Positions 1 through 49,671 are shown, counted from the stretch's first letter. The stretch: 61,559 nucleotides of DNA from Rikenellaceae bacterium DTU049 (GCA_001513285.1 LFTI01000013.1:1-61559); one strand, 5' to 3'. Notes: generated by a model from the sequence alone, not told the origin. Program-made: numbers and translations.

Positions 1-530
1 TTTCTCATTGCTCGTTTCATTTCTCTGACACTTGAATATTTTCTACCCTTTTCAGAATAATCCATCAGCAATTCGTCTATTTCTACTATGCCAAAGAAAT
101 TAACATTTTTGTCAAAATTCTTTAATGCAGCGAGGATTTTGTGTCGCCAGGCGAAGCTTGTTGGCAGACTTATGCCAACCTCTCTAGCACAAGCTCTGAG
201 ACTTTTGCCAGCAACCATACAGCGAATATACTCGAGCATAAGTTGAGATTTTTGCAATCGATAAACAAAAGTGCCAGTAGTAATCCTGAATTGTCTGCCA
301 CAGTGCTTACAACGATAATTTTGCATACCTTTTTGTTTACCATTTTTTACAATATCGTTGCTACGACAGTTTGGACATAGTGGAGGAGTGCTTTGAATTT
401 TTAAACCTTGGTAATCTACTACGTCAGCTTCGTTCTGTAGTAGGAAATCGTAGAGATTATCGAAGAAGGCTTTTGAGTCTTCCTTACTCATGCCCAGGTG
501 TTCATTAATATTATTAAATAAAGTCTTCAT
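1..530 (-). CDS. IS1595-family (ISXO2-like) transposase, N-terminal 176 codons, partial
   Basis: Hand translation of the minus strand from ATG 530..528 gives MKTLFNNINEHLGMSKEDSKAFFDNLYDFL...CPNCRSNDIVKNGKQKGMQNYRCKHCGRQF...GKSLRACAREVGISLPTSFAWRHKIL...VEIDELLMDYSEKGRKY. This is collinear with the 329-aa transposases at 28660 and 49615. It is absent from the ORF track because it has no stop inside the window. Confidence 0.8.
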   Translation of the reverse strand, partial: MKTLFNNINEHLGMSKEDSKAFFDNLYDFLLQNEADVVDYQGLKIQSTPPLCPNCRSNDIVKNGKQKGMQNYRCKHCGRQFRITTGTFVYRLQKSQLMLEYIRCMVAGKSLRACAREVGISLPTSFAWRHKILAALKNFDKNVNFFGIVEIDELLMDYSEKGRKYSSVREMKRAMR

Positions 531-601
531 AAATATTGATTTTTTGGCAAATATACATAAAAATTTTTATATGATATTAATATCATTAATTACTTTAAAC
601 A
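1..601 (-). mobile_element. IS1595-family insertion sequence, diverged paralogue of the copies at 28.6 and 48.6 kb. Truncated by the window edge, so only its left end is present.
   Basis: The minus-strand transposase ORF runs off the window. The 22-nt end sequence at 580-601 (revcomp tgtttaaagtaattaatgatat) is followed inward by a tatatttg box and then the ATG at 530. Confidence 0.7.
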
Positions 602-8691: not shown

Positions 8692-8948
8692 GAGGTAATA
8701 AGTGGTTAATGATTAGTGATTAGTGATGGATGATGAGTGAAATGGAGAAGTTTTTATAAGCTAATTAGTGAAAAAACTAAGCATATCCTCACTATCTCTC
8801 TCAGTCATCAATTCTCCATTTATCCTTTTCTCTCCGTCACCCCCTCTCCCCATCACCTCGTTCTCTGTCTCCCATCAACTAATCAACTTTTCAACTTCAT
8901 CACCTATTCTCCCAGTCTCCCCATCACCTATCACCTATCACTTATCAA
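8692..8948. repeat. Tandem degenerate heptamer/octamer array with opposed arms: purine-rich arm 8692-8750, linker 8751-8782, pyrimidine-rich arm 8788-8948
   Basis: The left arm has units of type NNGTGAT. The right arm is the complement type (ctcccca/tcaccta/tcacctc...). The linker aagctaattagtgaaaaaactaa recurs reversed at 25836-25858 and in variant form at ~60899-60920. Confidence 0.8.
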
Positions 8949-9330: not shown

Positions 9331-9482
9331 AAGCGTTATATTAATAACACATTAATAACTATATTTCATATAAGTATCATTGATTTTTATATAAATTTAT
9401 ATTTAATTTACTTTTCATTGACAATCAAACTAAGAAAAGTAACAAAAAAAATGTTTCCGCTGGAGATATGATTTGATAAAAC
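9331..9482 (+). repeat. Repeat family A, copy 2 (degenerate hairpin)
   Basis: ...attaataactatatttcatataagtatcattgattttt...tttacttttcattgacaatcaaactaagaaaagtaacaaaaaaaatgtttccgctggagatatgatttgataaaac aligns with copies 1 and 4. Confidence 0.7.
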
Positions 9483-9621
9483 TGCTATTTAGTCATCTCA
9501 TAAAAAGTTAAAACCTCATATTTCCAGATGATTATCCCCAAAAACGATTGATTAAATAGATAATAATTTTTAATCCTTTGAATAATATTTTATATTAATT
9601 TTGCAAACTAATAAAATTTAT

Positions 9622-13510: not shown

Positions 13511-13620
13511 TTTAATTATTTAATTAATAACTAAAATATTTCTGGTTCATTCACATTAATAACTATATTTCTTATGAGTGTAATTTTATTTTTTAATAAA
13601 TTTCTATTTAATTTACTTCT
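13511..13620 (+). repeat. Repeat family A, copy 3 (truncated before the hairpin)
   Basis: tttaattatttaattaataactaaaatatttctggttcattcacattaataactatatttcttatgagtgtaatt...aaatttctatttaatttactt. Confidence 0.65.
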
Positions 13621-21365: not shown

Positions 21366-24300
21366 ATGGAAAATAAAAAACTTGTGCCCAATTTTTTGTT
21401 TGAGGTTAGCTGGGAAGTGTGTAATAAAGTTGGTGGTATATATACTGTATTATCTACCAAAGCATATAAATTAGAAGCTATGCTAGGCTCGCAATACATT
21501 CTGGTAGGTCCTGATATTGTAAAAGATGCTGCAAATGAAAGGTTATTTATACAGGATGATGGATTATATCATAAATGGGTAAAAAAAGCTAGAGAGGATG
21601 GTCTAAAAATCAGAATTGGAAGATGGCAAACCAAAGGTAATCCTATAACTATTTTAGTAGATTTTAGACATTTATTTGATCAACGCGACAAAATATTCAC
21701 AGATTTATGGATAAAATATAAATTAGATTCTTTATATGGAGGTTGGGATTATATAGAGCCAGCATTATTCGGTTATGAAGCTGGTAAGGTAATACATCAT
21801 TTCTATGAACATCATGTAACTGCTCAGGATAAAATAGTAGCTAATTTTCATGAATGGCTTACTGGAGCTGGTATTTTATATTTAGAAGATAAAGTTCCAC
21901 AGGTAGGTACTGCTTTTACTACTCATGCTACCACTTTAGGGCGTACTATTGCTGGTAATGGCTTGCCATTATACAATGAATTAGCTAATTATGATCCACA
22001 GCAAATGAGTAAACAATTTAACATTATTTCTAAATATTCAATGGAGAAATGTGCAGCTAATAATGCCGATGCATTCTCTACTGTATCTCCTATTACTGCT
22101 AATGAATGTAATTATTTCCTAGGCAAACAACCAAGTATTATTACCCCAAATAGTTTCGATATAGACGTTGTACCTAAAGATGAAGAATATGACAAAATAA
22201 AAGCTACATCTCGTGAAAAAATTATTAGACTTTTCAAAGCCACATCAGGTGCACAAGCAGAGAATCCTTTACTAGTTTTGATATCTGGTAGATATGAAAT
22301 GCGCAATAAAGGTATAGATTTATTCATTAAATCATTAAGTAAATTAAAAAATCAAAATCCTAATCGTAATATATTTGCTTGTATAGCAATACCATCAGGA
22401 ATTCAAGGACCTATACATGATGTTTTAGATGCTTATAATAATGATACTACCTCAGAGCATAAATATTTAACTTCGCATTATTTAAATGATGAAGATACAG
22501 ATCCTATAATTAATGCTTTTAGAAATGAAGGTTTACTCAATCAGGATGATAATCCCGTAAAAGTATTATTTATTCCTAGCTATTTAGATGGTAATGATGG
22601 CCTTTTAAATATTTCTTATTATGAATTTCTCATGGGGTTTGACCTAACAATTTTCCCATCATATTATGAACCGTGGGGCTACACTCCTATGGAGAGTACA
22701 GCATTTGGTATTCCTACTCTTACGACAACTTTATCAGGTTATGGTAATTGGGTGAAATCACTTAATTATGACACCGCTGAATATATTAGAATCGTTGACA
22801 GAAATGATTATAATGATGATGAGGTAATGGATAACATTACCAATTACATCAGAGAACACTTACAGCTAAATGATGAGCAAAGGATTTCATTAAGAAATAA
22901 ATGCTGGCAAATAGCTAAATTGGCTCATTGGGATAATTTTATTAATTATTATTTTGATTTATATGATATAGCTCTTAAAGAATCTGAAAAAAGAATTGTT
23001 CAATATTATTTCAAAACTGTAAAAGATTATGTCGTTACTAGCCCAAAGGAGATAGATGTAGCAGAATGGAGAAAAGTTTTTGTAAAACCAGAGTATCCAC
23101 AATCATTATTACCACTTGTAGAATTAACGCAAAACCTATGGTGGACTTGGGATGATGAAGCTACTGAATTTATGAAAAACATAAATCCTGTCTATTGGGT
23201 AAAATCTGATTATAATCCAATAGCAATGCTCGAAATGATGTCTTATGATGAGATTATTAATTTATCACAAGATAAATCTTTTATTGAGAAATTAAATGCA
23301 ATCTATAAAAGATTCAAAGACTATATGAGTTTATCTCCATACAAAAAAGATGATAAATTAGTTGCCTATCTATGTATGGAATATGGAATACATTCTTCTC
23401 TAAAAATTTATAGTGGTGGGTTAGGAATATTAGCTGGTGATTATCTAAAAGAAGCTAGTGATAGTAATTTTCCCATTGTTGCCTTTGGATTACTTTTTAG
23501 ATATGGTTATTTTAAACAAGTCTTATCTCGTTTAGGTGAGCAAATAGCACAATATATTCCGCAAAAATTCACTAATTTACCCATAATAGCAGTGAGAGAT
23601 AGTAATGATGAATGGATGAAAATACAATTACCATTTCCTGGTAGAAATGTTTTTGCTAAATTATGGCAAGTAAATGTAGGTAGAATACATTTATATTTAT
23701 TAGATACTGACATAGAAGAAAATGAAGATGAGGATAAAGAAATAACAGCTAGACTATATGATGCAAATTGGGAAATGAGGCTAAAACAAGAATATTTATT
23801 AGGGTTTGGCTCTATATATGCTATGCGTGCTATGGGCATTAGTCCTAATATTTTTCATTTGAATGAAGGTCACGCAGCATTTGCTAATATTGCGAGATTG
23901 AGATATTATATTAAAGAGCAACATTTACCTTTTCAGCATGCTTTAGAAATAGTTCGTAAATCATCAATTTTTACAACACATACACCTGTACCTGCAGGTC
24001 ATGATAAATTTTCTGAAAATCTAATGCGTGCATATTTTGCTCATATACCAGAAACACTCGATATTAGTTGGGATGAATTTATGGATCTCGGTAGAGTAAA
24101 ACGTACTGATGAAGAGTTTTCTGTAACACATTTAGCTATTAAAACTTCTGTATATGTAAATGCTGTTAGTAAAATTCATAAAAATGTTACTTGCGACATG
24201 TTCAAAGATCTTTATAGAGGATTTTTTAATAGTGAACTTTTTATTGATTATGTAACTAATGCTGTGCATCCCAAAACATGGATGTGTGGAGCTTGGCAAA

Positions 24301-25601
24301 AAGCATTTATGAGTGTTGCTGGTAATGAATTTTTCGAGCATATGCACGAGAATCACGACTATTGGAAATTTATTGATAAACTAAAACCTTTAACTATTTG
24401 GAAACTCAAAACAGATCAGAAACATGAACTTTATGATAAACTTGTTGAACGTTTAGCTAAGCAAATGCCTCAGAGACAAGAATTACCTGGTCAAATAATT
24501 CATACTTTAGAAGAACTAAATACAACACCAGAAATTTTAACTATAGGTTTCGCTCGTAGATTTGTTACTTATAAACGTGCTCATTTGCTATTTATCGATT
24601 TGAAGCGTTTAGAAAGTATCGTAAATAATCCTCAATATCCTGTACGTTTCATTTTTAGTGGTAAAGCTCATCCATCAGATAAAGCTGGCGAAGATTTAAT
24701 AAAAAGAATTATTGAGGTTTCTAGACTACCAGAATTTATTGGTAAGATAATTTTTGTTGAAAATTATGATACAGAATTTGCTAAATTACTTTTAAAAGGT
24801 GTAGATGTATGGCTCAATACGCCTACTAAACCTTTAGAAGCTAGTGGTACCTCTGGAATGAAAGCAGTTATGAATGGCACTTTGAACTTTAGTGTGCTTG
24901 ATGGTTGGTGGGCAGAAGGCTATGTACCTGGTGGTGGTTGGGCTCTCAGACAAGAAAATACTTATGATGATCCTGATCTTCAAGATCAATTAGATGCCGA
25001 AATGATATATAGTATTTTAGAAGATGAAATAGTACCAACTTTTTATGAAAGAGATAGTGAAGGTGTACCTCAAAAATGGGTAGAAATGATTAAAAATGCT
25101 TATTTCCACATTGCGCCTCATTTCATCACTAAACGTATGCTCCTAGAGTATGATAATAAATTCTACAATAATTTATTTGATTATTATAAAACTCTTTCTG
25201 ACAATGATTACCAGAATCTTTTCAGATTTATATCTTGGAAAAGAAAGATTTATCGTAATTGGGATGAAATAAAACTAGAAAATATCGAAATGTTTGATAG
25301 CTCTAAACATCATCTGCCTCTTGGTGATAAATTTTATGTGAAACTAATAATAGATCTCAAAGAATTAAAACCAGATGATGTAATAATAGAATTAATTTTT
25401 GGTAAAAAAGAAGAAGGCCGTATAGTAGATATAGCGTTTACTAAAGCATTTGATTTTGTTAGCTGCCAAGGTCCTAAAGCTATTTATGAATGTACTATAC
25501 CTATGGAGCAAAGTGGTGTTTATAATTTCTCTATTAGATTGAGACCACAGCATCCTTTATTAGCTCATAAACAAGATTTCTACTTAGTACGCTGGCTATA
25601 A
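21366..25601 (+). CDS. Fusion protein: GT3-type glycogen synthase (N-terminal ~550 aa) plus GT35 alpha-glucan phosphorylase (C-terminal ~850 aa)
   Basis: The N-terminus FEVSWEVCNKVGGIYTV is the eukaryote-like GT3 signature. The C-terminal half has GGLGILAGD and the PLP-lysine region EASGTSGMKAVMNG. Confidence 0.85.
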   Translation: MENKKLVPNFLFEVSWEVCNKVGGIYTVLSTKAYKLEAMLGSQYILVGPDIVKDAANERLFIQDDGLYHKWVKKAREDGLKIRIGRWQTKGNPITILVDFRHLFDQRDKIFTDLWIKYKLDSLYGGWDYIEPALFGYEAGKVIHHFYEHHVTAQDKIVANFHEWLTGAGILYLEDKVPQVGTAFTTHATTLGRTIAGNGLPLYNELANYDPQQMSKQFNIISKYSMEKCAANNADAFSTVSPITANECNYFLGKQPSIITPNSFDIDVVPKDEEYDKIKATSREKIIRLFKATSGAQAENPLLVLISGRYEMRNKGIDLFIKSLSKLKNQNPNRNIFACIAIPSGIQGPIHDVLDAYNNDTTSEHKYLTSHYLNDEDTDPIINAFRNEGLLNQDDNPVKVLFIPSYLDGNDGLLNISYYEFLMGFDLTIFPSYYEPWGYTPMESTAFGIPTLTTTLSGYGNWVKSLNYDTAEYIRIVDRNDYNDDEVMDNITNYIREHLQLNDEQRISLRNKCWQIAKLAHWDNFINYYFDLYDIALKESEKRIVQYYFKTVKDYVVTSPKEIDVAEWRKVFVKPEYPQSLLPLVELTQNLWWTWDDEATEFMKNINPVYWVKSDYNPIAMLEMMSYDEIINLSQDKSFIEKLNAIYKRFKDYMSLSPYKKDDKLVAYLCMEYGIHSSLKIYSGGLGILAGDYLKEASDSNFPIVAFGLLFRYGYFKQVLSRLGEQIAQYIPQKFTNLPIIAVRDSNDEWMKIQLPFPGRNVFAKLWQVNVGRIHLYLLDTDIEENEDEDKEITARLYDANWEMRLKQEYLLGFGSIYAMRAMGISPNIFHLNEGHAAFANIARLRYYIKEQHLPFQHALEIVRKSSIFTTHTPVPAGHDKFSENLMRAYFAHIPETLDISWDEFMDLGRVKRTDEEFSVTHLAIKTSVYVNAVSKIHKNVTCDMFKDLYRGFFNSELFIDYVTNAVHPKTWMCGAWQKAFMSVAGNEFFEHMHENHDYWKFIDKLKPLTIWKLKTDQKHELYDKLVERLAKQMPQRQELPGQIIHTLEELNTTPEILTIGFARRFVTYKRAHLLFIDLKRLESIVNNPQYPVRFIFSGKAHPSDKAGEDLIKRIIEVSRLPEFIGKIIFVENYDTEFAKLLLKGVDVWLNTPTKPLEASGTSGMKAVMNGTLNFSVLDGWWAEGYVPGGGWALRQENTYDDPDLQDQLDAEMIYSILEDEIVPTFYERDSEGVPQKWVEMIKNAYFHIAPHFITKRMLLEYDNKFYNNLFDYYKTLSDNDYQNLFRFISWKRKIYRNWDEIKLENIEMFDSSKHHLPLGDKFYVKLIIDLKELKPDDVIIELIFGKKEEGRIVDIAFTKAFDFVSCQGPKAIYECTIPMEQSGVYNFSIRLRPQHPLLAHKQDFYLVRWL

Positions 25602-25610
25602 ATATTTAAT

Positions 25611-25858
25611 GACGAGACTGGGTGACTGGGAGATGGGGAGACGAGGTGACTGGGAGAATAGGTGATGGGTGATAAGTGATAAATGATGGGGAGACTAGGT
25701 GACGGGGAGACGAGGTGATAAGTGATGAGTGATAGGTGATTAGTGATAAGGAGACTGGGGGACGGGGAGACTTGGTGATTGGGAGAAATGGAGACGAGGT
25801 GACTTGGAGAAGATGAGAAAAAATAAGGAAAGGTTAGTTTTTTCACTAATTAGCTTTA
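25611..25858. repeat. Tandem degenerate octamer/heptamer array (NNGGNGAY / NNGTGAT units) plus conserved terminal linker
   Basis: tgggtgac tgggagat ggggagac gaggtgac tgggagaa taggtgat gggtgat aagtgat aaatgat ggggagac... The linker ttagttttttcactaattagctt is at 25836-25858. Confidence 0.85.
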
Positions 25859-27232: not shown

Positions 27233-28546
27233 ATGAAATCTATTTTAATAATTGGTGCAGGTTTATCTGCTAAAGTATTAATAAATTATCTATCAAAGCA
27301 AGCTAAACAAAATGATTGGAAAATAACGATAGCTGAACAAAACTTACATGCTATAGAATATATTGATTTACCCAAAATACAACTAGATGTCACAGATGAC
27401 AAAGCTAGGTATGAATGTATTAAAAATTTTGATGTGATAATCTCTATGGTGCCTGCACGTTTTCATTTTTTAATAGCAAAAGATTGCTTGGCACTGGGCA
27501 AACATTTATTTACAGCTTCCTACATTTCACCAGAGATGAAAGCAATTGAAAAAGAAGTAAAAGAAAAAAATTTATTATTTTTAAACGAATGTGGATTAGA
27601 TCCAGGACTCGATCATATGTCTGCAATGAAATTAATACATAATATTAAACATAATGGTGGTGAAATATTGGAATTTGAAAGCTCTACGGGAGGCTTAGTA
27701 GCACCTGAGTATGACAATAATCCATGGAATTATAAATTTACATGGAATCCTAGAAATGTTGTTCTCGCTGGTATGGAACCAGCAAAATATTTAGATAATG
27801 GGAAATATAAATATATACCATATCATCGTATTTTTCAATGGACAACAAACATCAAGGTTGCTGGATTAGGTGATTTCGAAGTTTATCCTAATAGAGATTC
27901 TCTGAAATACAGATATATCTACGGTTTAGAAAATGTTAAAACTATGCTAAGAGGTACAATTAGACGACCTGGCTATTGCAAATCATGGAATGCCTTTGTA
28001 CAACTCGGGCTCACTGATGATAGCTATGAAATAGAAAATATTGATAAAATGACATGGAAAGAACTTATATCCGCATACCTGCCAAATATTCCGGATAAAT
28101 CTATCGAAGACAATTTTTGCGATTATCTTGGCATAAATCGCAATAGTCAAGAATTTAATAAATTTGAATGGTTAGAAATATTTACAGAAAAACCAGTAGG
28201 TTTACAAAAAGGTACTCCCGCTCAAGCTTTACAACATTTACTCGAGGAAAAATGGAAATTGGAAGTTAATGACAAGGATTTAATCGTTATGCAACATAAT
28301 ATTGGCTATAAAATCAATGGAGAATATCATAAAATCAAATCTACGTTAACATATACAGGAAAAGATCAAATTAATACAGCTATGGCAGCAACAGTAGGAT
28401 TGCCATTGGCAATAGCAATAGATTTATTTATGCAAGGTAAATTACAAAAGACAGGAGTATTGCTGCCAATAGAACCTGATATTTACGAGCCGATATTAAA
28501 AAAATTAGAAGAATTTAATATTAAGTTTGTAGAAGAAGAGATTTGA
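27233..28546 (+). CDS. Saccharopine dehydrogenase (L-glutamate-forming type)
   Basis: Rossmann ILIIGAGLSAKVLINYL and GLDPGLDHMSAMK, characteristic of the Sacchrp_dh NADP-binding and C-terminal domains. Confidence 0.8.
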   Translation: MKSILIIGAGLSAKVLINYLSKQAKQNDWKITIAEQNLHAIEYIDLPKIQLDVTDDKARYECIKNFDVIISMVPARFHFLIAKDCLALGKHLFTASYISPEMKAIEKEVKEKNLLFLNECGLDPGLDHMSAMKLIHNIKHNGGEILEFESSTGGLVAPEYDNNPWNYKFTWNPRNVVLAGMEPAKYLDNGKYKYIPYHRIFQWTTNIKVAGLGDFEVYPNRDSLKYRYIYGLENVKTMLRGTIRRPGYCKSWNAFVQLGLTDDSYEIENIDKMTWKELISAYLPNIPDKSIEDNFCDYLGINRNSQEFNKFEWLEIFTEKPVGLQKGTPAQALQHLLEEKWKLEVNDKDLIVMQHNIGYKINGEYHKIKSTLTYTGKDQINTAMAATVGLPLAIAIDLFMQGKLQKTGVLLPIEPDIYEPILKKLEEFNIKFVEEEI

Positions 28547-28556
28547 ATAAGAAGTT

Positions 28557-28592
28557 AAAGAATAGCAATATTTTTCAATATTGCTATTCTTT
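28557..28592 (+). terminator. Perfect 16-bp stem / 4-nt loop hairpin, probable intrinsic terminator of the saccharopine dehydrogenase gene
   Basis: aaagaatagcaatatt tttc aatattgctattcttt lies 11 nt after the stop. The right arm ends in a T-rich run. Confidence 0.6.
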
Positions 28593-28603
28593 AATTAATA
28601 TTT

Positions 28604-29685
28604 ATGTTAAACTTTTCATGTTAAATATTTTTATTAATTTTGTAAAAAATATAAAAATTATGGAATATTCAATTGAAAACATAGAAAAAATCCTGGCTCT
28701 GACCAAGGAGGGCAAACGTGAATTCCTAGATAATCTCTATGAATTCCTCAATGAGAATAGATTGACAGCATTAGATTATCAGAGAATAAAGATTTTATCA
28801 ACAGCTCCCATTTGCCCTAGGTGTGATTGCGAATATGTAACTAAAGCTGGTGTGAGTGATGGCAGACAAGTCTATAAATGTAAAAAATGTGGCTATAGAT
28901 TCAGAGAAACTGCAAAATCACTTGTCTATTATTCGCATAAATACTACCTTTTAATGGATTATATAAAATGTATGTTAGAAGGTAAAAGTCTTAGGGCTTG
29001 TGCTAGAGAAGTTGGCATCAGTTTACCAACAAGTTTCAAATGGAGACATAAAATTCTATCTGCCATTCGAGGATTAGAGGGAGGAATTAGTTTCTCTGGA
29101 ATAACAGAAGCTGATGAGCTATTAATGCAATATTCAGAAAAAGGTCGCAAATACAAAACTCTAGAAGAAAAAGAGCAAGCTATGAATACTGTCCATCCTA
29201 ATGTTGCTGTATTGGTAATGACAGATAGGGAAGGTAATTTGCTTTTCAAACACATTGGAGAAAATAGAGTCCAGAATAGTCAGATAAAAGAAGAGCTAAA
29301 GCGAAGAGTATCAGAGAAAAATTTGATATGTTTTAAGCCAAATGAAGAGTTCACGCAAGCAGTGAAAGAATCACCAAGCAAAAAAGTATTAGTAAGACGT
29401 AAAACAAAGGGATTAGCAGTTTATAGTGTAAATGTAGCAGAGAAAAAGATCACTAATTTTCTAATTTGGATGATGAGATTCAGAGGAGTAGCAACAAAGT
29501 ATTTGCAGAACTACCTTATGTGGTTTGTAGTGATGAATAAGTACTTGAAAGATGAGGTAGAGTCAGACATTGGGCGACTATTAAACTTGTCATCACACGA
29601 TAGGTGGGCGTGGGAGCGGTATTTTAGATTAATGAAGTTGAAATATTAAATATCATGTAAAGTTTAACAAAAATGTTGTTTATAT
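28604..29685 (+). mobile_element. IS1595-family insertion sequence, complete copy 1 (1082 bp)
   Basis: Boundaries are set by where similarity to the inverted copy at 48590-49671 begins and ends. Imperfect IRs are tgttaaacttttcatg (28605-28620) and catgtaaagtttaaca (29654-29669). Confidence 0.85.
28660..29649 (+). CDS. IS1595-family (ISXO2-like) transposase, 329 aa
   Basis: Zinc ribbon CPRCDCEYVTKAGVSDGRQVYKCKKCGYRF, HTH GKSLRACAREVGISLPTSFKWRHKIL, and catalytic region starting ITEADELLM. Start set at MEYSIENIEK, which is shared with copy 2. Confidence 0.9.
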   Translation: MEYSIENIEKILALTKEGKREFLDNLYEFLNENRLTALDYQRIKILSTAPICPRCDCEYVTKAGVSDGRQVYKCKKCGYRFRETAKSLVYYSHKYYLLMDYIKCMLEGKSLRACAREVGISLPTSFKWRHKILSAIRGLEGGISFSGITEADELLMQYSEKGRKYKTLEEKEQAMNTVHPNVAVLVMTDREGNLLFKHIGENRVQNSQIKEELKRRVSEKNLICFKPNEEFTQAVKESPSKKVLVRRKTKGLAVYSVNVAEKKITNFLIWMMRFRGVATKYLQNYLMWFVVMNKYLKDEVESDIGRLLNLSSHDRWAWERYFRLMKLKY

Positions 29686-35072: not shown

Positions 35073-36113
35073 ATGAAAAAATATGTGTTGGTAACTTTTT
35101 TTAATTTCATTACTATATTAGTTTTCACTCAGATACCTAATGGATATTATGATAATGCTCAGGGCAAATATGGACAAGAGCTTAGAGTGGCTTTATATAA
35201 TATTATAAAAACTAATGTAACAACTATTAGCTATGACCAATTATGGGATGCATATCCTAGAACTGATAAGAAACCAAATGGTAAAGTATGGGACATTTAT
35301 AGTGATATTCCTAATGGCACTCCACCATATGAGTATACATTTTTCGCAGATCAATGTGGTAATTATACTGGAGAAGGTGTTTGCTATAATAGAGAACACA
35401 CTGTACCAAAAAGTTGGTTTAATGAAGCCTCACCCATGTATAGTGATCTTTTTCATGTTTTACCTACTGACGGTTATGTGAATAGTATGCGAAGCAATCA
35501 TCCCTATGGCAAAGTAGGAAATGCAACCTGGACTTCTGAGAATGGTAGTAAACTTGGTAGTTCTGCAACTAGTGGATATTCTGGCACTGTCTTTGAACCT
35601 ATAGATTCCTTCAAAGGTGATGTAGCACGTATATATTTCTATATGGCTACTAGATATATGGACAAAATAGCTAATTGGACTGGTGAAAGTTTCCAAAATA
35701 GTGATTTATCTTCTTGGGCAAAAAATTTATTCCTGCAATGGCATCAGCTCGATCCTGTTAGTAGTAAAGAAAGAAAAAGAAATGATTCTGTTTATGTAAT
35801 CCAGCATAACAGAAATCCTTTTGTAGATCATCCTGAATGGGTTAATGACATCTGGGGGCCATCAGCCTCTATAAATAATTATGATTTTATTGCATATTTA
35901 TACACTACTAGTGACGCTATAAATGTTAATTTTGTGAATACTTTTGATAATTTGACGATAAAATTATTCTCTATACAAGGCCAACTAATTTATGATGCAG
36001 AAATAAATAATTCAAATAATTTTATCATTCCTATAACTTTCAATCAAGGAGTATACATTTTGACCATATATAATGACCAAAATATTTATACTGAAAAAAT
36101 CGTAATTGAGTAA
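35073..36113 (+). CDS. Secreted endonuclease I family nuclease with T9SS C-terminal sorting domain
   Basis: Signal peptide; YNREHTVPKSWF...DLFHVLPTDGYVNSMRSNHPYG matches the endonuclease I pattern. The last ~75 aa (LTIKLFSIQGQLIY...GVYILTIYNDQNIYTEKIVIE) resembles a type A T9SS CTD. Confidence 0.8.
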   Translation: MKKYVLVTFFNFITILVFTQIPNGYYDNAQGKYGQELRVALYNIIKTNVTTISYDQLWDAYPRTDKKPNGKVWDIYSDIPNGTPPYEYTFFADQCGNYTGEGVCYNREHTVPKSWFNEASPMYSDLFHVLPTDGYVNSMRSNHPYGKVGNATWTSENGSKLGSSATSGYSGTVFEPIDSFKGDVARIYFYMATRYMDKIANWTGESFQNSDLSSWAKNLFLQWHQLDPVSSKERKRNDSVYVIQHNRNPFVDHPEWVNDIWGPSASINNYDFIAYLYTTSDAINVNFVNTFDNLTIKLFSIQGQLIYDAEINNSNNFIIPITFNQGVYILTIYNDQNIYTEKIVIE

Positions 36114-36752: not shown

Positions 36753-36835
36753 GAAATTGGAGACTGGGAGAGGGGGAGAAATATCAAAAATATGGGATAG
36801 TTTAAAAATATAAGATTTATTCTTTATAAAAAAGT

Positions 36836-36874
36836 AATTTATTCAAAAATATTCATTAATTTTACATAATAAAA
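36836..36874 (+). promoter_or_regulatory. 39-bp promoter-like direct repeat, copy 1 (near-consensus -7 box taatttta at 36857-36864)
   Basis: aatttattcaaaaatattcattaattttacataataaaa is identical to 40808-40846 except for one position. In both copies an ATG follows the box at 19-20 nt. Confidence 0.55.
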
Positions 36875-36883
36875 ATATTTTTT

Positions 36884-37543
36884 ATGCACACCGCCAAGGA
36901 GCTAGACAACGAGACCAGTTATACATATTTCGGGGCGAGATATTATGATAGTGAGCTGAGTGTGTGGCTGAGCGTGGATCCGATGAGTGATAAGTATCCA
37001 TCGCTATCGCCATATTGCTATACTGCGAATAATCCAATAATTTTAATAGACCCAGATGGCCGGGCTTGGAAACCTACAACATCAGATGATAAACCAAATG
37101 GTTATGTATGGGTGCCAGAAGGAATATATGAAGCCAAAGTTGGACTGCATAATGGAAATTACACTGCTTTAAGAATGGGCGATGTTGGAACAACAGATTT
37201 TAGCAATAATAGAATAGAATTAGGTACCGAAAATCCAGCTTACAGCGATGGTAGAACCTATGCTACTGGTATCAATATTCATAAAGCGGGTAAAAAAAAC
37301 TTTACTGGGGTTGACATGTATAGAAAGCCCGTTTCAGCAGGATGTATCTTAATAGATATTAATAACTGGAGTAGTTTTATTGGACACTTCAATAATGATG
37401 CTCAGAAAAACAATACAGTAAGTGTTAGTATATCCAGGACTTATAGAAAACCATTAAATTATAATTGGACAACGCCAGTATTTGATCCTCCAATAAATAA
37501 TAACATGATAGATAATACCAGGGTTGTAATACCAGGGTTGTAA
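36884..37543 (+). CDS. Orphan RHS C-terminal module: RHS-core remnant (~60 aa) plus toxin domain with a YkuD/L,D-transpeptidase-like H-x17-S-x-G-C motif
   Basis: SYTYFGARYYDSELSVWLSVDPMSDKYPSLSPYCYTANNPIILIDPDGRAW is the RHS repeat-associated core ending in DPxG. The tail has VPEGIY...INIHKAGKKNFTGVDMYRKPVSAGCILID. Confidence 0.8.
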   Translation: MHTAKELDNETSYTYFGARYYDSELSVWLSVDPMSDKYPSLSPYCYTANNPIILIDPDGRAWKPTTSDDKPNGYVWVPEGIYEAKVGLHNGNYTALRMGDVGTTDFSNNRIELGTENPAYSDGRTYATGINIHKAGKKNFTGVDMYRKPVSAGCILIDINNWSSFIGHFNNDAQKNNTVSVSISRTYRKPLNYNWTTPVFDPPINNNMIDNTRVVIPGL

Positions 37544-37564
37544 AACCATATAGGAGATAAAACC

Positions 37565-38077
37565 ATGAATATAAAAATTTTAACATACATAATTTTTTGT
37601 CTTTTAAGCATAAGTGCAATGGGACAAACGAATAATAATATCAACCAATTAAATGATGAAGGCAAAAAAGAAGGCTTATGGATTGAAAATAATGGATTAA
37701 TAGAAGCATATTACAAAGCCGGTTTAAAAGATGGGATTTTTAAAGCCTATAACCGTAAAAATGGGAAATTGTCTGTATTTGGCGAATTTACCGAAGGCAA
37801 GAAATCTGGGACATGGTATTATTTTGACGAAGCAAGCATTCTTCTTTTTACAGAAACGAATATTGAAAAGAATACTAAATATACAATAATGCGAGATGAT
37901 GGCGTGGAAATTACCCCCTTGTTTACATCTTATGTAATAGACTATTATCCCAATGGCTATATAAAAGCAGAAGGCAGAGTATTGTATGATGAAGATGTCC
38001 AAATACATTCTTTTGAAACTGGAACGTGGAAGTACTATAACAAGCAAGGAGAATTAGTACAGACAAAAGAACATTAA
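37565..38077 (+). CDS. Exported MORN-variant repeat protein (YwqK-type antitoxin family), candidate immunity protein for 36884-37543
   Basis: Signal peptide; repeats GKKEGLWIE.., GLKDGIFKAY.., GKKSGTWYYF.., ETGTWKYYNKQGEL. Lies directly downstream of the toxin ORF. Confidence 0.7.
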   Translation: MNIKILTYIIFCLLSISAMGQTNNNINQLNDEGKKEGLWIENNGLIEAYYKAGLKDGIFKAYNRKNGKLSVFGEFTEGKKSGTWYYFDEASILLFTETNIEKNTKYTIMRDDGVEITPLFTSYVIDYYPNGYIKAEGRVLYDEDVQIHSFETGTWKYYNKQGELVQTKEH

Positions 38078-38198
38078 AATAACGAAGCACCAATTGAGAC
38101 TTTTTTATTTTAAAACTTAGTCGTCCCGTCCAACAAATCCTTAATCCGTTTTTTGGTCAGCATAGAGTTGATAATTTTTATTACAAAAAGTTTTAACC

Positions 38199-38749
38199 AT
38201 GAATAAAAAATATTTAATAATTATGTTAGTCTTAGCTACCATGATTATATCTTGTTCTACTAATATGAGTACAATTAATAATATCAATAATAAACAGTTT
38301 AAACAACTAAAAAAGTTACACCTAAAACTTATTACATATATTACAAAAAATTTGTAAAAAATTATCGTAATATAATATTAAATGATATATTAGAGGAAAA
38401 ACGATATAAACAACTTTATATAACAGAGATTATAAATCAAATGGATTTAACCAAATATTATGGATATATTTTAGCAGATAATATTGTAGCATATAGTTTC
38501 AATATTGATTTAATGAACAATGTTTTTTATTGGGACAAAATATTGCTTACTGAATATAATAAAAATAATATTTATAATGTTTTTTTTAATGATAATAATT
38601 TCTCCATACTGCGAAATAAGTTTAATCATTCATCTATAGTGTATGATGCTGGATATATATTTTTGCTTAAAATAGTATTTAATAATAAAATTAATATTGA
38701 AACTATTTCTTTTTATGATTTTTCAGAGAATAAAATAATTTATGAATAA
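38199..38749 (+). pseudogene. Lipoprotein gene split by a frameshift at an A6 tract (38309-38314), candidate orphan immunity gene
   Basis: A 52-codon ORF at 38199-38357 (MNKKYLIIMLVLATMIISCSTN..., lipobox) overlaps the upstream open extension (from 38303) of the frame of ORF 38441-38749. One extra A in the tract would join them into a ~183-aa lipoprotein. Confidence 0.5.
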
Positions 38750-38790
38750 ATTTGTATGGTAAATATAAATAATAAAAATAAAACATAATA

Positions 38791-39195
38791 ATGAAAAGTA
38801 TGTATTTACGCAATATTATGATTATAATTTTTATAATATTTATTATAATTATTATTTTTATTTTAAGTTATAATTCACCAAATTTGAATGAAAAAGAGCT
38901 AAAAAGATGTTTTATTAATAAAACAAATATTAGTATTGATGATACTTTCATTATTAGTAAATATGAAAACACAGGTCTTTCAATGTATGATTACTCAGAA
39001 ACTTACTATATAAAAGTTACAGATAATGACTATACAAATATTTTAAAAGAAATTAAATTGAAATATAAAAATTGGATAAAAAATTCAAAAGGTTATGAGT
39101 TATATATACCTCAGAATAAATCTAATGATACCTGTTTTGCATTTCAAATAGATACTATAAATAAATTTTTAATAATTTCAATTATTGAAGAATAA
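38791..39195 (+). CDS. Hypothetical membrane-anchored protein (candidate orphan immunity protein)
   Basis: N-terminal hydrophobic anchor IMIIIFIIFIIIIIFIL. No recognisable domain; position is within the RHS-CT array. Confidence 0.45.
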   Translation: MKSMYLRNIMIIIFIIFIIIIIFILSYNSPNLNEKELKRCFINKTNISIDDTFIISKYENTGLSMYDYSETYYIKVTDNDYTNILKEIKLKYKNWIKNSKGYELYIPQNKSNDTCFAFQIDTINKFLIISIIEE

Positions 39196-39964
39196 AATTG
39201 TAAGGTATTTTTTGATGAGATATAAATATTTTCAAAACATAAAATATATTTTCAAAGTTAATTTGTTTGTTAACCAAAGGAATACTGAGTTAGATATTGA
39301 GTCAAACTATACATACATTGGAGCTTTATATTATGATAGTGAGCTGAGTGGGTGGCTGAGTGTGGATCTGATGAGAGATAAATATCCATCGATATCGCAA
39401 TATTACTATACTGCGGATAATCCAATGGTGCTGGTAGATCCGAATGGGATGCTAATAACAGATTATTATGATATTAAAACAAGTGAACATCTCGAACATA
39501 TAGATGATGTTATAGTTGAAGCAATAGCAATTAAAAATATTGTTTATGATGTTTTAGAAAATCGTTCAAATGTATCTGAAAAATCTATAAATGAAATAAA
39601 TAAATCTACTGCTATATATGGCTATGGTTCCAAAAATTATAATATTGCTTTATCTGAGGGTAAAGGATATAATGCAAATGAATACAGTATTTCTCGACAT
39701 AATGCAGCCAGAAAAGGAGCTATGATGGGTATGCTAAATCGAAATAATAAATTAGATTATAGTCAAGGCGCATATTTTGAGGAAGGCTCAATTTATTTAG
39801 AAAATTCTACAAAATATAATACTAATTTTTTTAATAAACTTGGACATGGTACCACAATAGGATCATATCGTAATAAAAATACATTTTCTTATACTACAAA
39901 GATTGGAGGTACCCCGTTTATGAAATATAATCAAGATCTTTATCCTAAAAAAACATGGCCATGA
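39185..39964 (+). CDS. Second orphan RHS C-terminal module: core remnant plus unrelated toxin tail of unknown fold. The true start is uncertain.
   Basis: NYTYIGALYYDSELSGWLSVDLMRDKYPSISQYYYTADNPMVLVDPNGML. The handle DNA at 39329-39426 is ~91% identical to 36941-37038 by hand alignment, and the tail has no similarity to module 1. Confidence 0.65.
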   Translation: MKNKIVRYFLMRYKYFQNIKYIFKVNLFVNQRNTELDIESNYTYIGALYYDSELSGWLSVDLMRDKYPSISQYYYTADNPMVLVDPNGMLITDYYDIKTSEHLEHIDDVIVEAIAIKNIVYDVLENRSNVSEKSINEINKSTAIYGYGSKNYNIALSEGKGYNANEYSISRHNAARKGAMMGMLNRNNKLDYSQGAYFEEGSIYLENSTKYNTNFFNKLGHGTTIGSYRNKNTFSYTTKIGGTPFMKYNQDLYPKKTWP

Positions 39965-40614
39965 TAAAATATATTTTTAATTTATTTTTAATTTTTAATT
40001 TTATTAGTCATTCATGCTATGCAAATTTATTTGAAAATCCTATAATAAAAGATACATTACAAATAAAAGAAATAGATGAAGGTTACTTAATATATTTAGA
40101 TGATGTTAATATTATCAAACTTGTTAATGATTCTACTAATGTAACATATCTAATTTTACAAGACAAAAATAAAGTTAAATTAGATTTTTATATAATTCCT
40201 CCATATTTAACAGGTGCATATCTATTAAATTTAGATGAATTTGGAAAGGTTTTAGCTCTTGAAAGTTATTCAGTGGGAACTAGTGGTTTAAGTGCTAATA
40301 TAATCAATGTAAGTCTAATTTTCTTAAATAATCATAATAATAATAAAGTTTTATCATACAATTCATTTTGTGGTGGCATTGAACTGTTATTTAAAGATGA
40401 TAATAAATTTTTATTGAATATTTATGATTATAATGGGATAGATAATAATAATGTAACTTATTGCTTAAATATTTTTGAATTAACAAAAGATTGCTTTAAA
40501 CGAACTGATTCACTGCCAAAATGTTATATTGACACAGAAGATAAACAATTAAAATTTTATGATAGATGCAATTGTTCGACATTATATAAGCCATACATTT
40601 TATTTAGAGAATAA
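39955..40614 (+). CDS. Hypothetical exported protein, candidate immunity protein for 39185-39964
   Basis: Signal-peptide-like N-terminus MAMIKYIFNLFLIFNFISHSCYA. Overlaps the toxin stop by 10 nt, suggesting translational coupling. Confidence 0.5.
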   Translation: MAMIKYIFNLFLIFNFISHSCYANLFENPIIKDTLQIKEIDEGYLIYLDDVNIIKLVNDSTNVTYLILQDKNKVKLDFYIIPPYLTGAYLLNLDEFGKVLALESYSVGTSGLSANIINVSLIFLNNHNNNKVLSYNSFCGGIELLFKDDNKFLLNIYDYNGIDNNNVTYCLNIFELTKDCFKRTDSLPKCYIDTEDKQLKFYDRCNCSTLYKPYILFRE

Positions 40615-40633
40615 TAATCAATATTCAAATTAT

Positions 40634-40693
40634 AAAGAGCTAGATAAAAAGTGCAGTTATATGTATTTTGCATCGAGATATTATGATCCATAG
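40634..40693 (+). pseudogene. Third RHS-core handle remnant, truncated after YYD
   Basis: aaagagctagataaaaagtgcagttatatgtattttgcatcgagatattatgatccatag translates to KELDKKCSYMYFASRYYDP*. This parallels KELDNETSYTYFGARYYDS of module 1. Confidence 0.6.
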
Positions 40694-40725
40694 ATTAATT
40701 AAACTTATTATTTTTAAAAAACTTC

Positions 40726-40800
40726 TTGTCAAATCATTTCCCTAGCGTATACCATTCTTTTGTTACTTTTATCTGTTTGGTTGACAAAGAAAAGTAAAAT
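40726..40800 (-). repeat. Repeat family A, hairpin/tail module in reverse orientation
   Basis: The revcomp reads ttttacttttctttgtcaaccaaacagataaaagtaacaaaagaatggtatacgctagggaaatgatttgacaag. Confidence 0.7.
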
Positions 40801-40807
40801 ATATAAA

Positions 40808-40846
40808 AATTTATTCAAAAATATTCATTAATTTTACCTAATAAAA
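40808..40846 (+). promoter_or_regulatory. 39-bp promoter-like direct repeat, copy 2
   Basis: aatttattcaaaaatattcattaattttacctaataaaa, with the taatttta box at 40829-40836, 19 nt before the ATG at 40855. Confidence 0.55.
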
Positions 40847-40854
40847 TTTTATAT

Positions 40855-41382
40855 ATGAAAAATATATTATTTTTTATAATAGTTTTATTTACTTTTCCTT
40901 TCAATCTGTTTTCGCAAAATAAAAATCATGATAGTATCTGTGAGGATGCTATATATGTAAAAACAGATGATTATGAAGGTGTAATATTTGGACCTAAATG
41001 TTTAAAACGTCTATTAATAAAAGATGGAGATACAATAGATGAACCTAGATGGATACCTACAATGCAAGATATAGAAAATGCTGAAAAATTAATTAGAAAA
41101 TATGTAACAAAAAAATCTAAACATCATTTAGTAAATCAAGGTAATGGATGTCCGATAATATATCAAAATTTTGACAAATATGTTCGTCAATATTATGGTA
41201 CTTATAACAAAAAAGGTCAAAAAATATTAGAGGTTAATTTTTTATGGAGAGAATATGCTTATGAAACGGAATGGAAATGTGTTCGTTTAATGATATTTGA
41301 TGGTTGTAGCTTTTATTGGGATATAAGTGTAAATATGAATAAGAAAAAATGTTTTGATTATTGGGTAAATGGAATTGGATAA
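40855..41382 (+). CDS. Hypothetical secreted cysteine-containing protein (possible orphan immunity protein)
   Basis: Signal peptide MKNILFFIIVLFTFPFNLFSQ. No recognisable domain. Lies at the distal edge of the RHS-CT array. Confidence 0.5.
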   Translation: MKNILFFIIVLFTFPFNLFSQNKNHDSICEDAIYVKTDDYEGVIFGPKCLKRLLIKDGDTIDEPRWIPTMQDIENAEKLIRKYVTKKSKHHLVNQGNGCPIIYQNFDKYVRQYYGTYNKKGQKILEVNFLWREYAYETEWKCVRLMIFDGCSFYWDISVNMNKKKCFDYWVNGIG

Positions 41383-41482: not shown

Positions 41483-41690
41483 CTTCAACTTTTAAACTCA
41501 TCAACTTATCAACCCTATTACCTTTTATCTATCATCTATTACCTATCACTAATCACTAATAACCTATCTCCACGTCTCCTCGTCTCCTCATCTCCCAGTC
41601 ACCTTTTCTCCCCCTCACCCCATCTCCCCATCTCCCAGTCACCCTGTCTCACTAATCACCTACTAACCTTTAACCCATTAAACCATAATA
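41483..41690. repeat. Tandem degenerate octamer/heptamer array, pyrimidine-rich strand up
   Basis: The phase is clean in 8-nt units: tccacgtc tcctcgtc tcctcatc tcccagtc accttttc tccccctc accccatc tccccatc tcccagtc accctgtc. Confidence 0.85.
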
Positions 41691-45460: not shown

Positions 45461-45605
45461 GGCATTTAATTAATAACTAAATTATTACTGGTTAATCCTT
45501 GGTTATAGCTATATTTCTTATGACTATAATTGATTTTAAATAAATTTCTACTTAATTTACTTTTCTTTGTCAACTACACAAAGAAAAGTAACAAAAGAAA
45601 AGTCT
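45461..45605 (+). repeat. Repeat family A, copy 4 (hairpin at 45560-45588)
   Basis: ggcatttaattaataactaaattattactggtt...tttacttttctttgtcaactacacaaagaaaagtaacaaaagaaaagtct. Confidence 0.75.
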
Positions 45606-45746
45606 CCGCTGGGGAAATGATTTGATAAAACTACGCAATCACCTCTGGGGGTTTACAAACTCGCAAGCATTAGCTTGCTCAAACAGTGTAAACCCTTTTA
45701 CCCTACACGGCTTGCTTGTTTTATTACAAATCATTTCCCAATGCGG
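45606..45746 (+). other. Comparatively GC-rich nested-hairpin element (candidate structured RNA or miniature palindromic insert) embedded in repeat A copy 4
   Basis: The outer inverted repeat ccgctggggaaatgatttg (45606-24) pairs with caaatcatttcccaatgcgg (45727-46). The middle stem is gggtttaca (45649-57) with tgtaaaccc (45687-95). The inner hairpin is gcaagc atta gcttgc (45663-78). An alternative partner gcttgc at 45710-15 is followed by ttgtttta. Confidence 0.4.
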
Positions 45747-48589: not shown

Positions 48590-49671
48590 ATATAAACAAT
48601 ATTTTTGTTTAACTTTACATGATATTTAATATTTTAACTTCATCAATCTAAAATACCGCTCCCATGCCCATCTATCGTGAGATGACAAGTTTAATAGTCG
48701 CCCAATATCTGATTGTACCTTATCTTTCAAATACTTATTCATCACTACAAACCACATAAGATAGTTCTGCAGATACTTTGTTGCTACTCCTCTGAATCTC
48801 ATCATCCAAATTAGGAAATTAGTGATCTTTTTCTCTGCTACATTTACACTATAAACTGCTAATCCCTTTGTTTTACGTCTTACTAATACTTTTTTGCTTG
48901 GTGATTCTTTCACTGCTTGGGTGAACTCTTCATTTGGCTTAAAACATATCAAATTTTTCTCTGATACTCTTCGTTTTAGCTCATCTTTTATTTGACTATT
49001 CTGAACTCTATTTTCTCCAATGTGTTTCAAAAGCAAATTACCCTCTCTATCTGTCATTACCAATACAGCAACATTAGGATGGACAGTATTCATAGCTTGC
49101 TCTTTTTCTTCTAGAGTTTTGTATTTGCGACCTTTCTCTGAATATTGCATCAATAGCTCATCAGCTTCTGTTATTCCAGAGAAACTAATTCCTCCTTCTA
49201 ATCCTTGAATTGCAGATAAGATTTTATGTCTCCATTTAAAACTCGTTGGTAAACTGATACCAACTTCTTTTGCGCAGGCTCTTAAGCTTTTACCTTCTAA
49301 CATGCATTTTATATAATCTATTAAGAGGTAGTATTTATGCGAATAATAGACAAGTGATTTTGCAGTTTCTCTAAATCTATAGCCACATTTTCTACATTTA
49401 TAGACTTGTCTGCCATCACTCACACCAGCTTTAGTTACATATTCGCAATCACACCTAGGGCAAATGGGAGCTGTTGATAAAATCTTAATTCTCTGATAGT
49501 CTAGAGCTGTCAATCTATTCTCGTTGAGGAATTCATGGAGATTGTCTAGGAATTCACGTTTGCCCTCTTTTGTTAGAGCCAGTATTTTTTCTATGTTTTC
49601 AGTTGAATATTCCATAATTTTTATATTTTTTACAAAATTAATAAAAATATTTAACATGAAAAGTTTAACAT
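48590..49671 (-). mobile_element. IS1595-family insertion sequence, complete copy 2 (1082 bp), inverted relative to copy 1
   Basis: Collinear with 28604-29685 with scattered substitutions. The same IRs are present (catgaaaagtttaaca at 49655-49670). Confidence 0.85.
48626..49615 (-). CDS. IS1595-family transposase, 329 aa
   Basis: MEYSTENIEK...; differs from copy 1 at about ten residues in the supplied translations. Confidence 0.9.
   Translation of the reverse strand: MEYSTENIEKILALTKEGKREFLDNLHEFLNENRLTALDYQRIKILSTAPICPRCDCEYVTKAGVSDGRQVYKCRKCGYRFRETAKSLVYYSHKYYLLIDYIKCMLEGKSLRACAKEVGISLPTSFKWRHKILSAIQGLEGGISFSGITEADELLMQYSEKGRKYKTLEEKEQAMNTVHPNVAVLVMTDREGNLLLKHIGENRVQNSQIKDELKRRVSEKNLICFKPNEEFTQAVKESPSKKVLVRRKTKGLAVYSVNVAEKKITNFLIWMMRFRGVATKYLQNYLMWFVVMNKYLKDKVQSDIGRLLNLSSHDRWAWERYFRLMKLKY

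Follow-up and report, generated by a model that had tools for sequence, protein, structure and literature searches.

A satellite array of orphan rhs toxin remnants and exported immunity-type genes in a Bacteroidales genome

The ends of Rhs toxin genes, accompanied by small exported genes and separated from any gene that could deliver a toxin, raise the question of what such a locus retains: spare toxins, immunity, or nothing at all. An example is found in a 61,559-nucleotide stretch of DNA (hereafter the window) from Rikenellaceae bacterium DTU049 (GCA_001513285.1, LFTI01000013.1:1-61559), an AT-rich Bacteroidales genome, where an island of ~4.5 kb occupies 36.8-41.4 kb. All open reading frames (ORFs) of the island, and the other island features described below, are on the plus strand. 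In total, the island comprises two disabled toxins (ORFs A and F), one stub (H) of the repeated RHS-core segment termed here the handle, one broken immunity-type gene (ORFs C and D) and four intact ones (ORFs B, E, G and I). Its identification as a satellite array of orphan rhs C-terminal toxin (rhs-CT)/immunity cassettes, with disabled toxins and in a state of partial decay, is well supported. The function that it retains is probably immunity against Rhs toxins delivered by neighbours, so that the island would be an immunity bank if it is anything; we assign this reading a probability of roughly 0.6. The locus is of a familiar kind, and no new system is involved.

The handles were located by searching the six-frame translation of the window with the pattern [YF].[YF]..[RL]YYD plus downstream core sequence, which gave exactly three matches, at 36920, 39308 and 40658, all on the plus strand. 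A preliminary description of this DNA had reported three RHS-core ends within 4 kb, the third of them truncated, and this is borne out. The NCBIfam model TIGR03696 (Rhs_assc_core; curated cutoff 32.5 bits) matches the first two copies: ORF A (36884-37543) scores 56.1 bits (E=3.9e-15) over model positions 20-75 of 76, and ORF F (39185-39964) barely reaches the cutoff with 32.7 bits (E=8e-8). No TIGR03696 match was obtained for the third copy (40634-40693), which only similarity in DNA (78% identity to the first copy over 54 nt) and in peptide sequence reveals.

Handle A (36884-37059) consists of the last ~58 codons of the core and ends in NPIILIDPDGR. The leader and handle of ORF F together span 39215-39454, with decayed shell-proximal codons at 39230-39283 and the handle proper at 39284-39454, and tblastn aligns them to shell residues 427-530. 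Two mutations in the core of handle F change GARYYD to GALYYD and SVDPM to SVDLM; the copy in another strain (L002) is more canonical. Stub H (40634-40693, repeat family D3) preserves 20 core codons (KELDKKCSYMYFASRYYDP, then a stop) and ends in YYDP and a stop codon. Judging by its sequence, it is the remainder of a lost next cassette; at the counterpart position, after the homologue of ORF G, contigs L012 and L013 have a complete orphan toxin.

A YD-repeat shell is absent ahead of both cores, with ORF A beginning at model position 20 and ORF F keeping only ~25 decayed codons. With a 3246-aa SpvB/TcdB/RHS protein and a VgrG as tblastn queries, the window yielded only the two handles; the large ORFs of the window are housekeeping genes with no shell among them, and PAAR-size ORFs were scanned in the 10 kb either side of the island. 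Within that scope, the earlier statement that the 61 kb encode no rhs shell or VgrG holds. Because no shell precedes the core and none is present in the window, ORFs A and F are fragments rather than Rhs proteins.

The two tails attached to these handles are mutually unrelated on sequence comparison, as had been noticed before, and both are internally deleted. Tail A (37060-37543) is an L,D-transpeptidase-like (Tlde1-like) toxin domain with an in-frame deletion of 69 codons. Compared with the intact copy in contig L008, 207 nt are missing between two copies of GTGCCAGAAG, and the junction (37112-37121) is the 10-nt microhomology GTGCCAGAAG. An alignment of homologues finds the gap in the window copy and in the strain variant P0001; eight of nine other homologues keep the full segment, and the ninth, P0016, shows a separate, shorter gap at this place. 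The intact form of the tail is represented by P0002 (296 aa). ORF A as a whole has 2450 database homologues, the best 120 of which are all short (127-384 aa) Bacteroidales proteins annotated as 'RHS repeat-associated core'. The C-terminus of the window ORF A differs from that of P0002, and a 14-nt tandem repeat (TAATACCAGGGTTG, 2.6 copies) occupies 37513-37548 at the 3' end of ORF A.

An AlphaFold2 model of P0002, built on 40 homologues, has a mean predicted local distance difference test score (pLDDT) of 82 and is confident over the toxin domain. Its top nine Foldseek matches in the PDB are all L,D-transpeptidases, at levels that are weak (E=0.013-0.13, TM-score at most 0.40), and the best of them is a type VI secretion system (T6SS) effector, Tlde1a (7uo3_A; E=0.013, probability 0.85, TM-score 0.40). 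The arrangement H202-x17-S220-A-G222-C223-I is nearly invariant in 40 homologues of tail A; it fits the L,D-transpeptidase motif HXX14-17-(S/T)HGCh (PMC9638812) except for an Ala where His precedes Gly. Searches of Pfam (including YkuD), NCBIfam and PDB sequences with tail A gave no match. The YkuD-like character proposed earlier for this tail is thus retained weakly, via the structural matches of the intact homologue, but not as membership of the Pfam family. The window copy keeps the H-x17-S-A-G-C motif. Since the deletion takes out three confidently modelled beta-strands, however, the window tail is predicted to be unable to fold into an active enzyme.

ORF B (37565-38077), whose 170-aa product has a signal peptide and resembles MORN variants weakly, is the candidate cognate immunity gene of tail A: a full-length homologue, 80% identical, lies directly 3' of the intact P0002 gene in four contigs (L008-L011). 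The identification of a MORN-repeat protein at 37565 falls below threshold, as ORF B itself has no MORN match and its L008 homologue reaches 18.5 bits against MORN_2, for which the gathering cutoff is 29.6. A PDB search with ORF B gave chance-level matches only.

Tail F (39455-39964) is a toxin domain whose family has no annotation, and 52 codons have been deleted from it in frame. The 156 nt removed lay between short direct repeats (junction 39543-39559) and included the FEMIAATLYAEA block, which holds a family-invariant Glu (the YAE block). Thirteen close homologues share the tail; the 52-residue segment is missing from the window copy and its nearest relatives and is kept by all more distant homologues. 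A profile of the intact tail, searched against 1.8 billion proteins, recovered 133 cluster representatives (50% identity). Because the domain is C-terminal on long proteins (900-3300 aa, up to 3332 aa) and on a VgrG (P0232), it is to be regarded, on the strength of this architecture, as a genuine polymorphic-toxin domain. Nine residues, including E14, are invariant in 23 diverse members. Neither single sequences nor profiles of the domain matched Pfam or the PDB, and tblastn against phages and plasmids returned hypothetical proteins only, plus one chance-level phage match. The AlphaFold model of an intact F-type toxin was poor (pLDDT 43), and its Foldseek matches were meaningless (E>1). A SleB/CwlJ hydrolase identity, considered on the basis of the motif LAxTLYAEA...ENR, was rejected given the empty Pfam and PDB profile searches; an hhalign comparison with an approximate CwlJ sequence gave a probability of 0.3%.

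The start of ORF G (39955-40614; 219 aa, with a signal peptide) overlaps the stop of ORF F, and ORF G is the candidate cognate immunity gene of tail F. Its full-length homologues, at 77% and 40% identity, lie directly 3' of intact F-type toxins in L012, L013 and L014. Conserved adjacency of B with the tail A toxin, and of G with the tail F toxin, supports an immunity role for both as far as gene order can indicate one, and the toxin/immunity pairing that had been proposed is accordingly seen in the contigs that carry the intact toxins (L008-L011 and L012-L014).

The state of the tails bears directly on an explanation favoured in the preliminary description, namely that the island is a silent stockpile of toxins, whose reserve cassettes are recombined via the handle onto a master rhs gene and so switch the toxin that is deployed. 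In Salmonella, recombination is documented to activate orphans (PMC3967940), strains of the present lineage show exchange at the handle (see below), and handle A is 75-94% identical to the handles of the main rhs array. However, both tails are without conserved core segments of their intact homologues, a frameshift interrupts one immunity gene and two genes of immunity type stand without a toxin upstream, which leaves no usable stockpile. Handles F and H are also decaying in sequence and GC content, the array is separated from the main array by ~150 kb, and a full-length master gene was not found for the window's genome in a search with the N-terminus of the L016 protein described below. A stockpile is consequently quite improbable.

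The main rhs array (L007) is 20 kb long and lies ~150 kb from the island on the same 694-kb contig of a metagenome-assembled genome (MAG), GCA_036679165.1. It has ten handle copies, and its orphan toxins, which are of M91, M23, JAB1 and other types, all have a small exported gene after them. Its shells are two 5'-truncated genes of 716 and 730 aa. In a related MAG (L016), the counterpart of the 716-aa fragment forms the 3' end of a gene for a 3246-aa protein, with shared segments 91-99% identical; this protein contains an N-terminal hydrophobic segment and SpvB, FG-GAP, TcdB-mid and RHS-repeat domains, and an orphan array of the same kind lies downstream of its gene. When the N-terminal 1000 aa of the L016 protein were used as query, no match came from the 694-kb contig, and the best match overall was 72% identical; this is weak negative evidence because rhs genes assemble badly. 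The expectation of a master rhs gene elsewhere in the genome is therefore realised in part: a ten-handle array with truncated shells exists on the same contig, and this search detected no full-length gene. The main array also begins with a 207-aa ORF (L007 234-857) in which an HU-like N-terminus is joined to a toxin-like domain (containing LTLKEANEWYRNGNGEPLFVDASKIDL); the LTLKEANEWYRNGNGEPLFVDASKIDL domain is also the tail of a 342-aa Rhs orphan (L037 929-1957), and the 207-aa ORF looks like a chimeric toxin remnant, to judge from these similarities.

A comparison of the handles suggests the direction of their change. As initially stated, handle A is richer in GC than its surroundings (44% versus 28.7% for the window), and only 0.4% of the sequence's 171-nt windows reach its value. 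The main-array handles are at ~51%, and the values for A, F and H fall from 44% through 39% to 30%; likewise, handle A is 75-94% identical to the ten L007 handles (most 84-94%), and handle F shows 67-82% DNA identity to them. Homogenisation against a master gene, which had been offered as the cause of the high GC content, does not fit this gradient, which looks like drift towards the AT-rich genome composition after the cassettes left the main array.

Cassette exchange at the site can be followed in other strains and relatives. The same locus is found at 98.5-99.2% identity in two MAGs labelled Bacteroidales bacterium and in several metagenome assemblies; one of the contigs is the 694-kb contig. 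A strain that is 98-99% identical (L091) has two extra exported genes between the phosphopantetheinyl-transferase (ACPS) gene that flanks the island and ORF A. Its copy of ORF A runs upstream into rhs codons (..NYKFTAKELDNE), and the window copy has an ATG at the same codon. The two copies are unrelated 5' of handle codon 3 and near-identical 3' of it, and the 69-aa deletion is present in both. As read from the two sequences, this breakpoint constitutes direct evidence for the handle as a recombination joint, a role already suggested for it. Within the species, A-E are invariant and F-G-H form a 4% divergent mosaic with at least three haplotypes. In L092, L093 and L098, with flanks 92% identical, other cassettes rich in toxin remnants and exported small genes follow the same ACPS gene. 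The cassettes at the site thus differ among strains and among relatives, and the breakpoints fall at the handle and at an inter-cassette element that is repeated. Metagenome 3300025618 contains both the intact tail A (P0002) cassette and the window-type locus. In the array of L092 (5244-6340), at the same site, further toxins survive only as remnants: a 233-aa ORF joins 'MITAKEL', the last part of a toxin like the 272-aa L007 orphan and an exported protein, and the 130-aa C-terminal half of a JAB1-type toxin is followed by its intact 161-aa partner.

The remaining small ORFs of the island resemble immunity genes that have lost their toxins or their reading frame. ORFs C and D (38199-38749) are one lipoprotein gene, split by the loss of 1 nt in an A-run into ORFs of 52 aa and 102 aa (D starting at 38441); the intact gene encodes 183 aa. 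Pairwise alignment places the frameshift at 38309-38314, where the window has A6 and the intact copy A7. That copy (L007 17297-17908, 91% nt identity) comes after an M91-peptidase Rhs toxin in the main array. The frameshift is common to all six strain copies compared. ORF E (38791-39195; 134 aa) is an immunity-type gene with an N-terminal transmembrane anchor and no toxin module upstream. It gave no Pfam or NCBIfam family match, and its single homologue, 86% identical, is found after a toxin/immunity pair in an rhs orphan contig (L037). ORF I (40855-41382; 175 aa) is also of immunity type, with a signal peptide and no toxin upstream here; its counterparts at L007 6458-6982 and L008 2574-3080 (79-85% aa identity) each follow an M91-type module. 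Signal peptides, lipobox and transmembrane anchor of the ORFs at 37565, 38199, 38791, 39955 and 40855 were read by eye from the translations. The N-termini agree with the original report of five exported small ORFs, but the ORFs number six, with those at 38199 and 38441 belonging to one frameshifted gene.

Whether these genes are maintained by selection was assessed from the ratio of nonsynonymous to synonymous substitution rates (dN/dS). Between strains, dN/dS is 0.9-1.4 for F and 0.47-0.75 for G; it is 0.65 for tail A and 0.27 for B. Compared with more distant homologues, B, G and I have values of 0.26-0.36. An immunity function is favoured because the four exported genes are intact across strains and because B, G and I have dN/dS values below those of the toxin remnants, and further because immunity-rich arrays recur at the site in relatives and the P0002 cassette co-occurs with the locus in 3300025618.

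The same data must be set against the possibility that the whole island, immunity genes included, is genomic debris, a neutral remnant of an old rhs array awaiting deletion. Debris would be expected to look much as parts of the island do: C/D is frameshifted, H is a stub, both toxins are deleted, most cassettes are very AT-rich (18-27% GC), and the between-strain dN/dS of G (0.47-0.75) is not far below 1. However, each of the six strain copies compared retains the four exported ORFs at full length, homologues with 40-86% identity are full-length too, dN/dS for B, G and I against distant homologues is 0.26-0.36, and related strains retain different immunity-rich arrays at the same site. Neutral decay of the entire island is therefore considered unlikely, although it deserves real weight.

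The sequences ahead of the orphans raise a different possibility. A 60-nt upstream element (36824-36883) ends at the ATG of ORF A and holds a 39-nt repeat (36836-36874), which recurs as a direct repeat with 97% identity at 40808-40846. The upstream element aligns with regions 5' of P0002 in L008 and of the 272-aa and 269-aa orphans in L007, and the junction of element, ATG and handle is also found ahead of at least three other orphans with unrelated tails. In the second, inter-cassette copy (40726-40854), a dispersed hairpin-forming repeat comes first and then the 39-nt repeat, after which ORF I begins with its ATG. The 39-nt repeat is the 3' part of this element, and the 5' part (40726-40820) is a dispersed intergenic repeat with an inverted repeat. 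The dispersed repeat is ~100-130 nt long, occurs in both orientations and is also present at 2308-2451, 2605-2702, 9355-9483, 13559-13618 and 45500-45630; its inverted-repeat core has ~11 bp per arm in the best-preserved copies (CTTTTCTTTGT and ACAAAGAAAAG). The same repeat forms the inter-cassette sequence in the rhs arrays of L007, L008, L012 and L092. An Rfam scan of the window was empty, and the inter-cassette element is thus not a known RNA. A sigma-70 promoter scan of the island, which excludes Bacteroidetes promoters, found 46 sites against 46.2 expected in shuffles, and a terminator scan of the island found none.

Since at least four cassettes with different tails share a conserved element upstream and place an ATG at the same handle codon, the short proteins made up of ATG, handle and tail might be functional themselves, for example as toxins exported or loaded by another route, and the best 120 homologues of ORF A are indeed all short (127-384 aa). 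Orphans are, however, more numerous than master genes, and metagenome contigs are of limited length, so that short homologues would be expected anyway. Furthermore, the translations lack a signal peptide or any other domain for delivery, the core fragment falls short of what a shell requires, and the window tail is deleted as well, which makes stand-alone products very improbable indeed.

An immunity bank remains the best explanation, and the following sequence of events would account for it. The array would have been assembled from cassettes of the species' main rhs array, and both toxin tails would have been inactivated in frame, each by a deletion flanked by short direct repeats, leaving the array unable to supply working toxins. 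The toxins themselves may act in the periplasm, given that one resembles a peptidoglycan enzyme of the L,D-transpeptidase kind and that all of the immunity candidates are exported. Selection would then keep the immunity genes, the products of which would neutralise Rhs toxins from neighbours with intact cassettes, and homologous recombination at the handle and the inter-cassette repeat would shuttle cassettes between this site and the main array.

Several points weigh against this explanation. The dN/dS figures rest on few substitutions, and the toxins would be non-functional as judged from the deletions alone. One of the five immunity-type genes is already broken, which means that selection on immunity is not uniform, and the immunity role of E is argued solely from its position in another array. 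The intact P0002 cassette in the shared metagenome may be in the same genome or in a neighbour, and the whole island could be on its way out.

A more elaborate combination of proposals can also be formulated, in which the site downstream of the ACPS gene is one of recombinase-independent immunity capture, the 'repeat + ATG + handle' unit is both joint and expression signal, the toxins are systematically disarmed in frame such that translation reaches the overlapping immunity gene, and F and G represent an undescribed periplasm-acting family carried on Rhs and VgrG proteins. This combination is speculative and improbable.

The GC content of the island is 25.7%, compared with 28.7% for the window, and most cassettes are at 18-27%. 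On the left it is flanked by the ACPS gene (end 36752) and on the right by gcvT (start 41742), and all neighbours within 10 kb on either side are housekeeping genes. A tRNA scan of the window was empty, so a tRNA attachment site is absent. Two full IS1595-family transposase genes are present at 28543-29649 (plus strand) and 48626-49657 (minus strand), with a partial copy at 9-551 (minus strand); they are 57-64% identical to the one in L008, and the two full copies, which are inverted, bracket a 19-kb segment containing the island and housekeeping genes. Arrays of an 8-nt GC-rich intergenic period (GGAGACNN/GGTGACNN) occur at 8831-8947 (minus), 25616-25811 (plus), 36759-36779 (plus) and 41514-41654 (minus), often beside 7-nt GTGATAA runs, with 22 pattern matches against none in shuffles. 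Four other strain contigs have 96 nt more in the array at 36759, and the arrays therefore vary in length between strains. A role for the GGAGACNN arrays as inverted borders of the island was considered and rejected, since they are also found at two other intergenic sites of the window away from the island and are thus a genome-wide repeat. Further afield, a 1411-aa ORF (21366-25601, plus strand) fuses an N-terminal glycogen synthase (GT5/GT4) half to a C-terminal DUF3417/alpha-glucan phosphorylase half. Two genes upstream of the island, 35073-36113 (plus strand) encodes an Endonuclease I family protein with a type IX secretion system C-terminal sorting domain (Por_Secre_tail); in MAG GCA_035401865.1 this gene is two ORFs.

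The locus appears to record the late life of polymorphic-toxin cassettes, which exit the main array and have their toxins disarmed while their exported immunity genes persist and vary by strain. It fits the view that side-arrays provide orphan immunity more than spare weaponry, here in a lineage of uncultured Bacteroidales recovered from many metagenome assemblies. The Rhs-borne Tlde1-like toxin with its MORN-like partner and the unannotated F-type toxin domain are worth testing, and both leave the current picture of Rhs biology unchanged.

Among known systems, the island most resembles several arrays that have been described before. Like the orphan rhs-CT/rhsI modules of enterobacteria (Salmonella Typhimurium LT2, PMC3967940), it combines 5'-truncated rhs fragments, core homology, variable tails and small immunity genes, with cassettes moved by recombination in the shared core. 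It differs from them in lying ~150 kb from the main array and not directly downstream of a master gene, in the internal deletion of its toxin tails and in having several immunity genes without a toxin. In addition, one orphan class here is equipped with an ATG of its own and with a conserved element upstream, and the master gene of the relative encodes a 3246-aa SpvB/TcdB/RHS protein and not a PAAR-Rhs protein.

The AID-1/2 and rAID-1 clusters of gut Bacteroidales (bioRxiv 10.1101/471110) are likewise co-directional orphan immunity arrays, with some genes pseudogenised, low GC content, repeated intergenic sequence and strain-variable content. The island, like rAID-1 clusters, has at least two co-directional low-GC genes with repetitive intergenic sequence. 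The defining feature of rAID-1 is a gene for a XerD-like tyrosine recombinase at the 5' end of the cluster (bioRxiv 10.1101/471110); membership was rejected, as no gene for a XerD-like recombinase was seen within ~10 kb on either side of the island and the window's large ORFs encode housekeeping proteins or IS1595 transposases. Unlike the AID clusters, the island is apparently not on a mobile element, has RHS-handle toxin remnants interleaved with its immunity genes, and has immunity genes that relate to Rhs toxins and not to known Bacteroidales T6SS effectors.

At the level of the toxins, the Tlde1 family (Tlde1a, PDB 7uo3; PMC9638812) provides the best structural match of the intact tail A homologue and also has an exported partner, whereas tail A is fused to an RHS core rather than free-standing and its partner is MORN-like, not Tldi1-like. 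Finally, orphan cdiA-CT/cdiI arrays share with the island the tandem arrangement of displaced toxin-tip/immunity pairs and a short conserved junction for recombination. There the carrier is CdiA with a VENN junction, here it is RHS with DPxG, and the secretion route differs.

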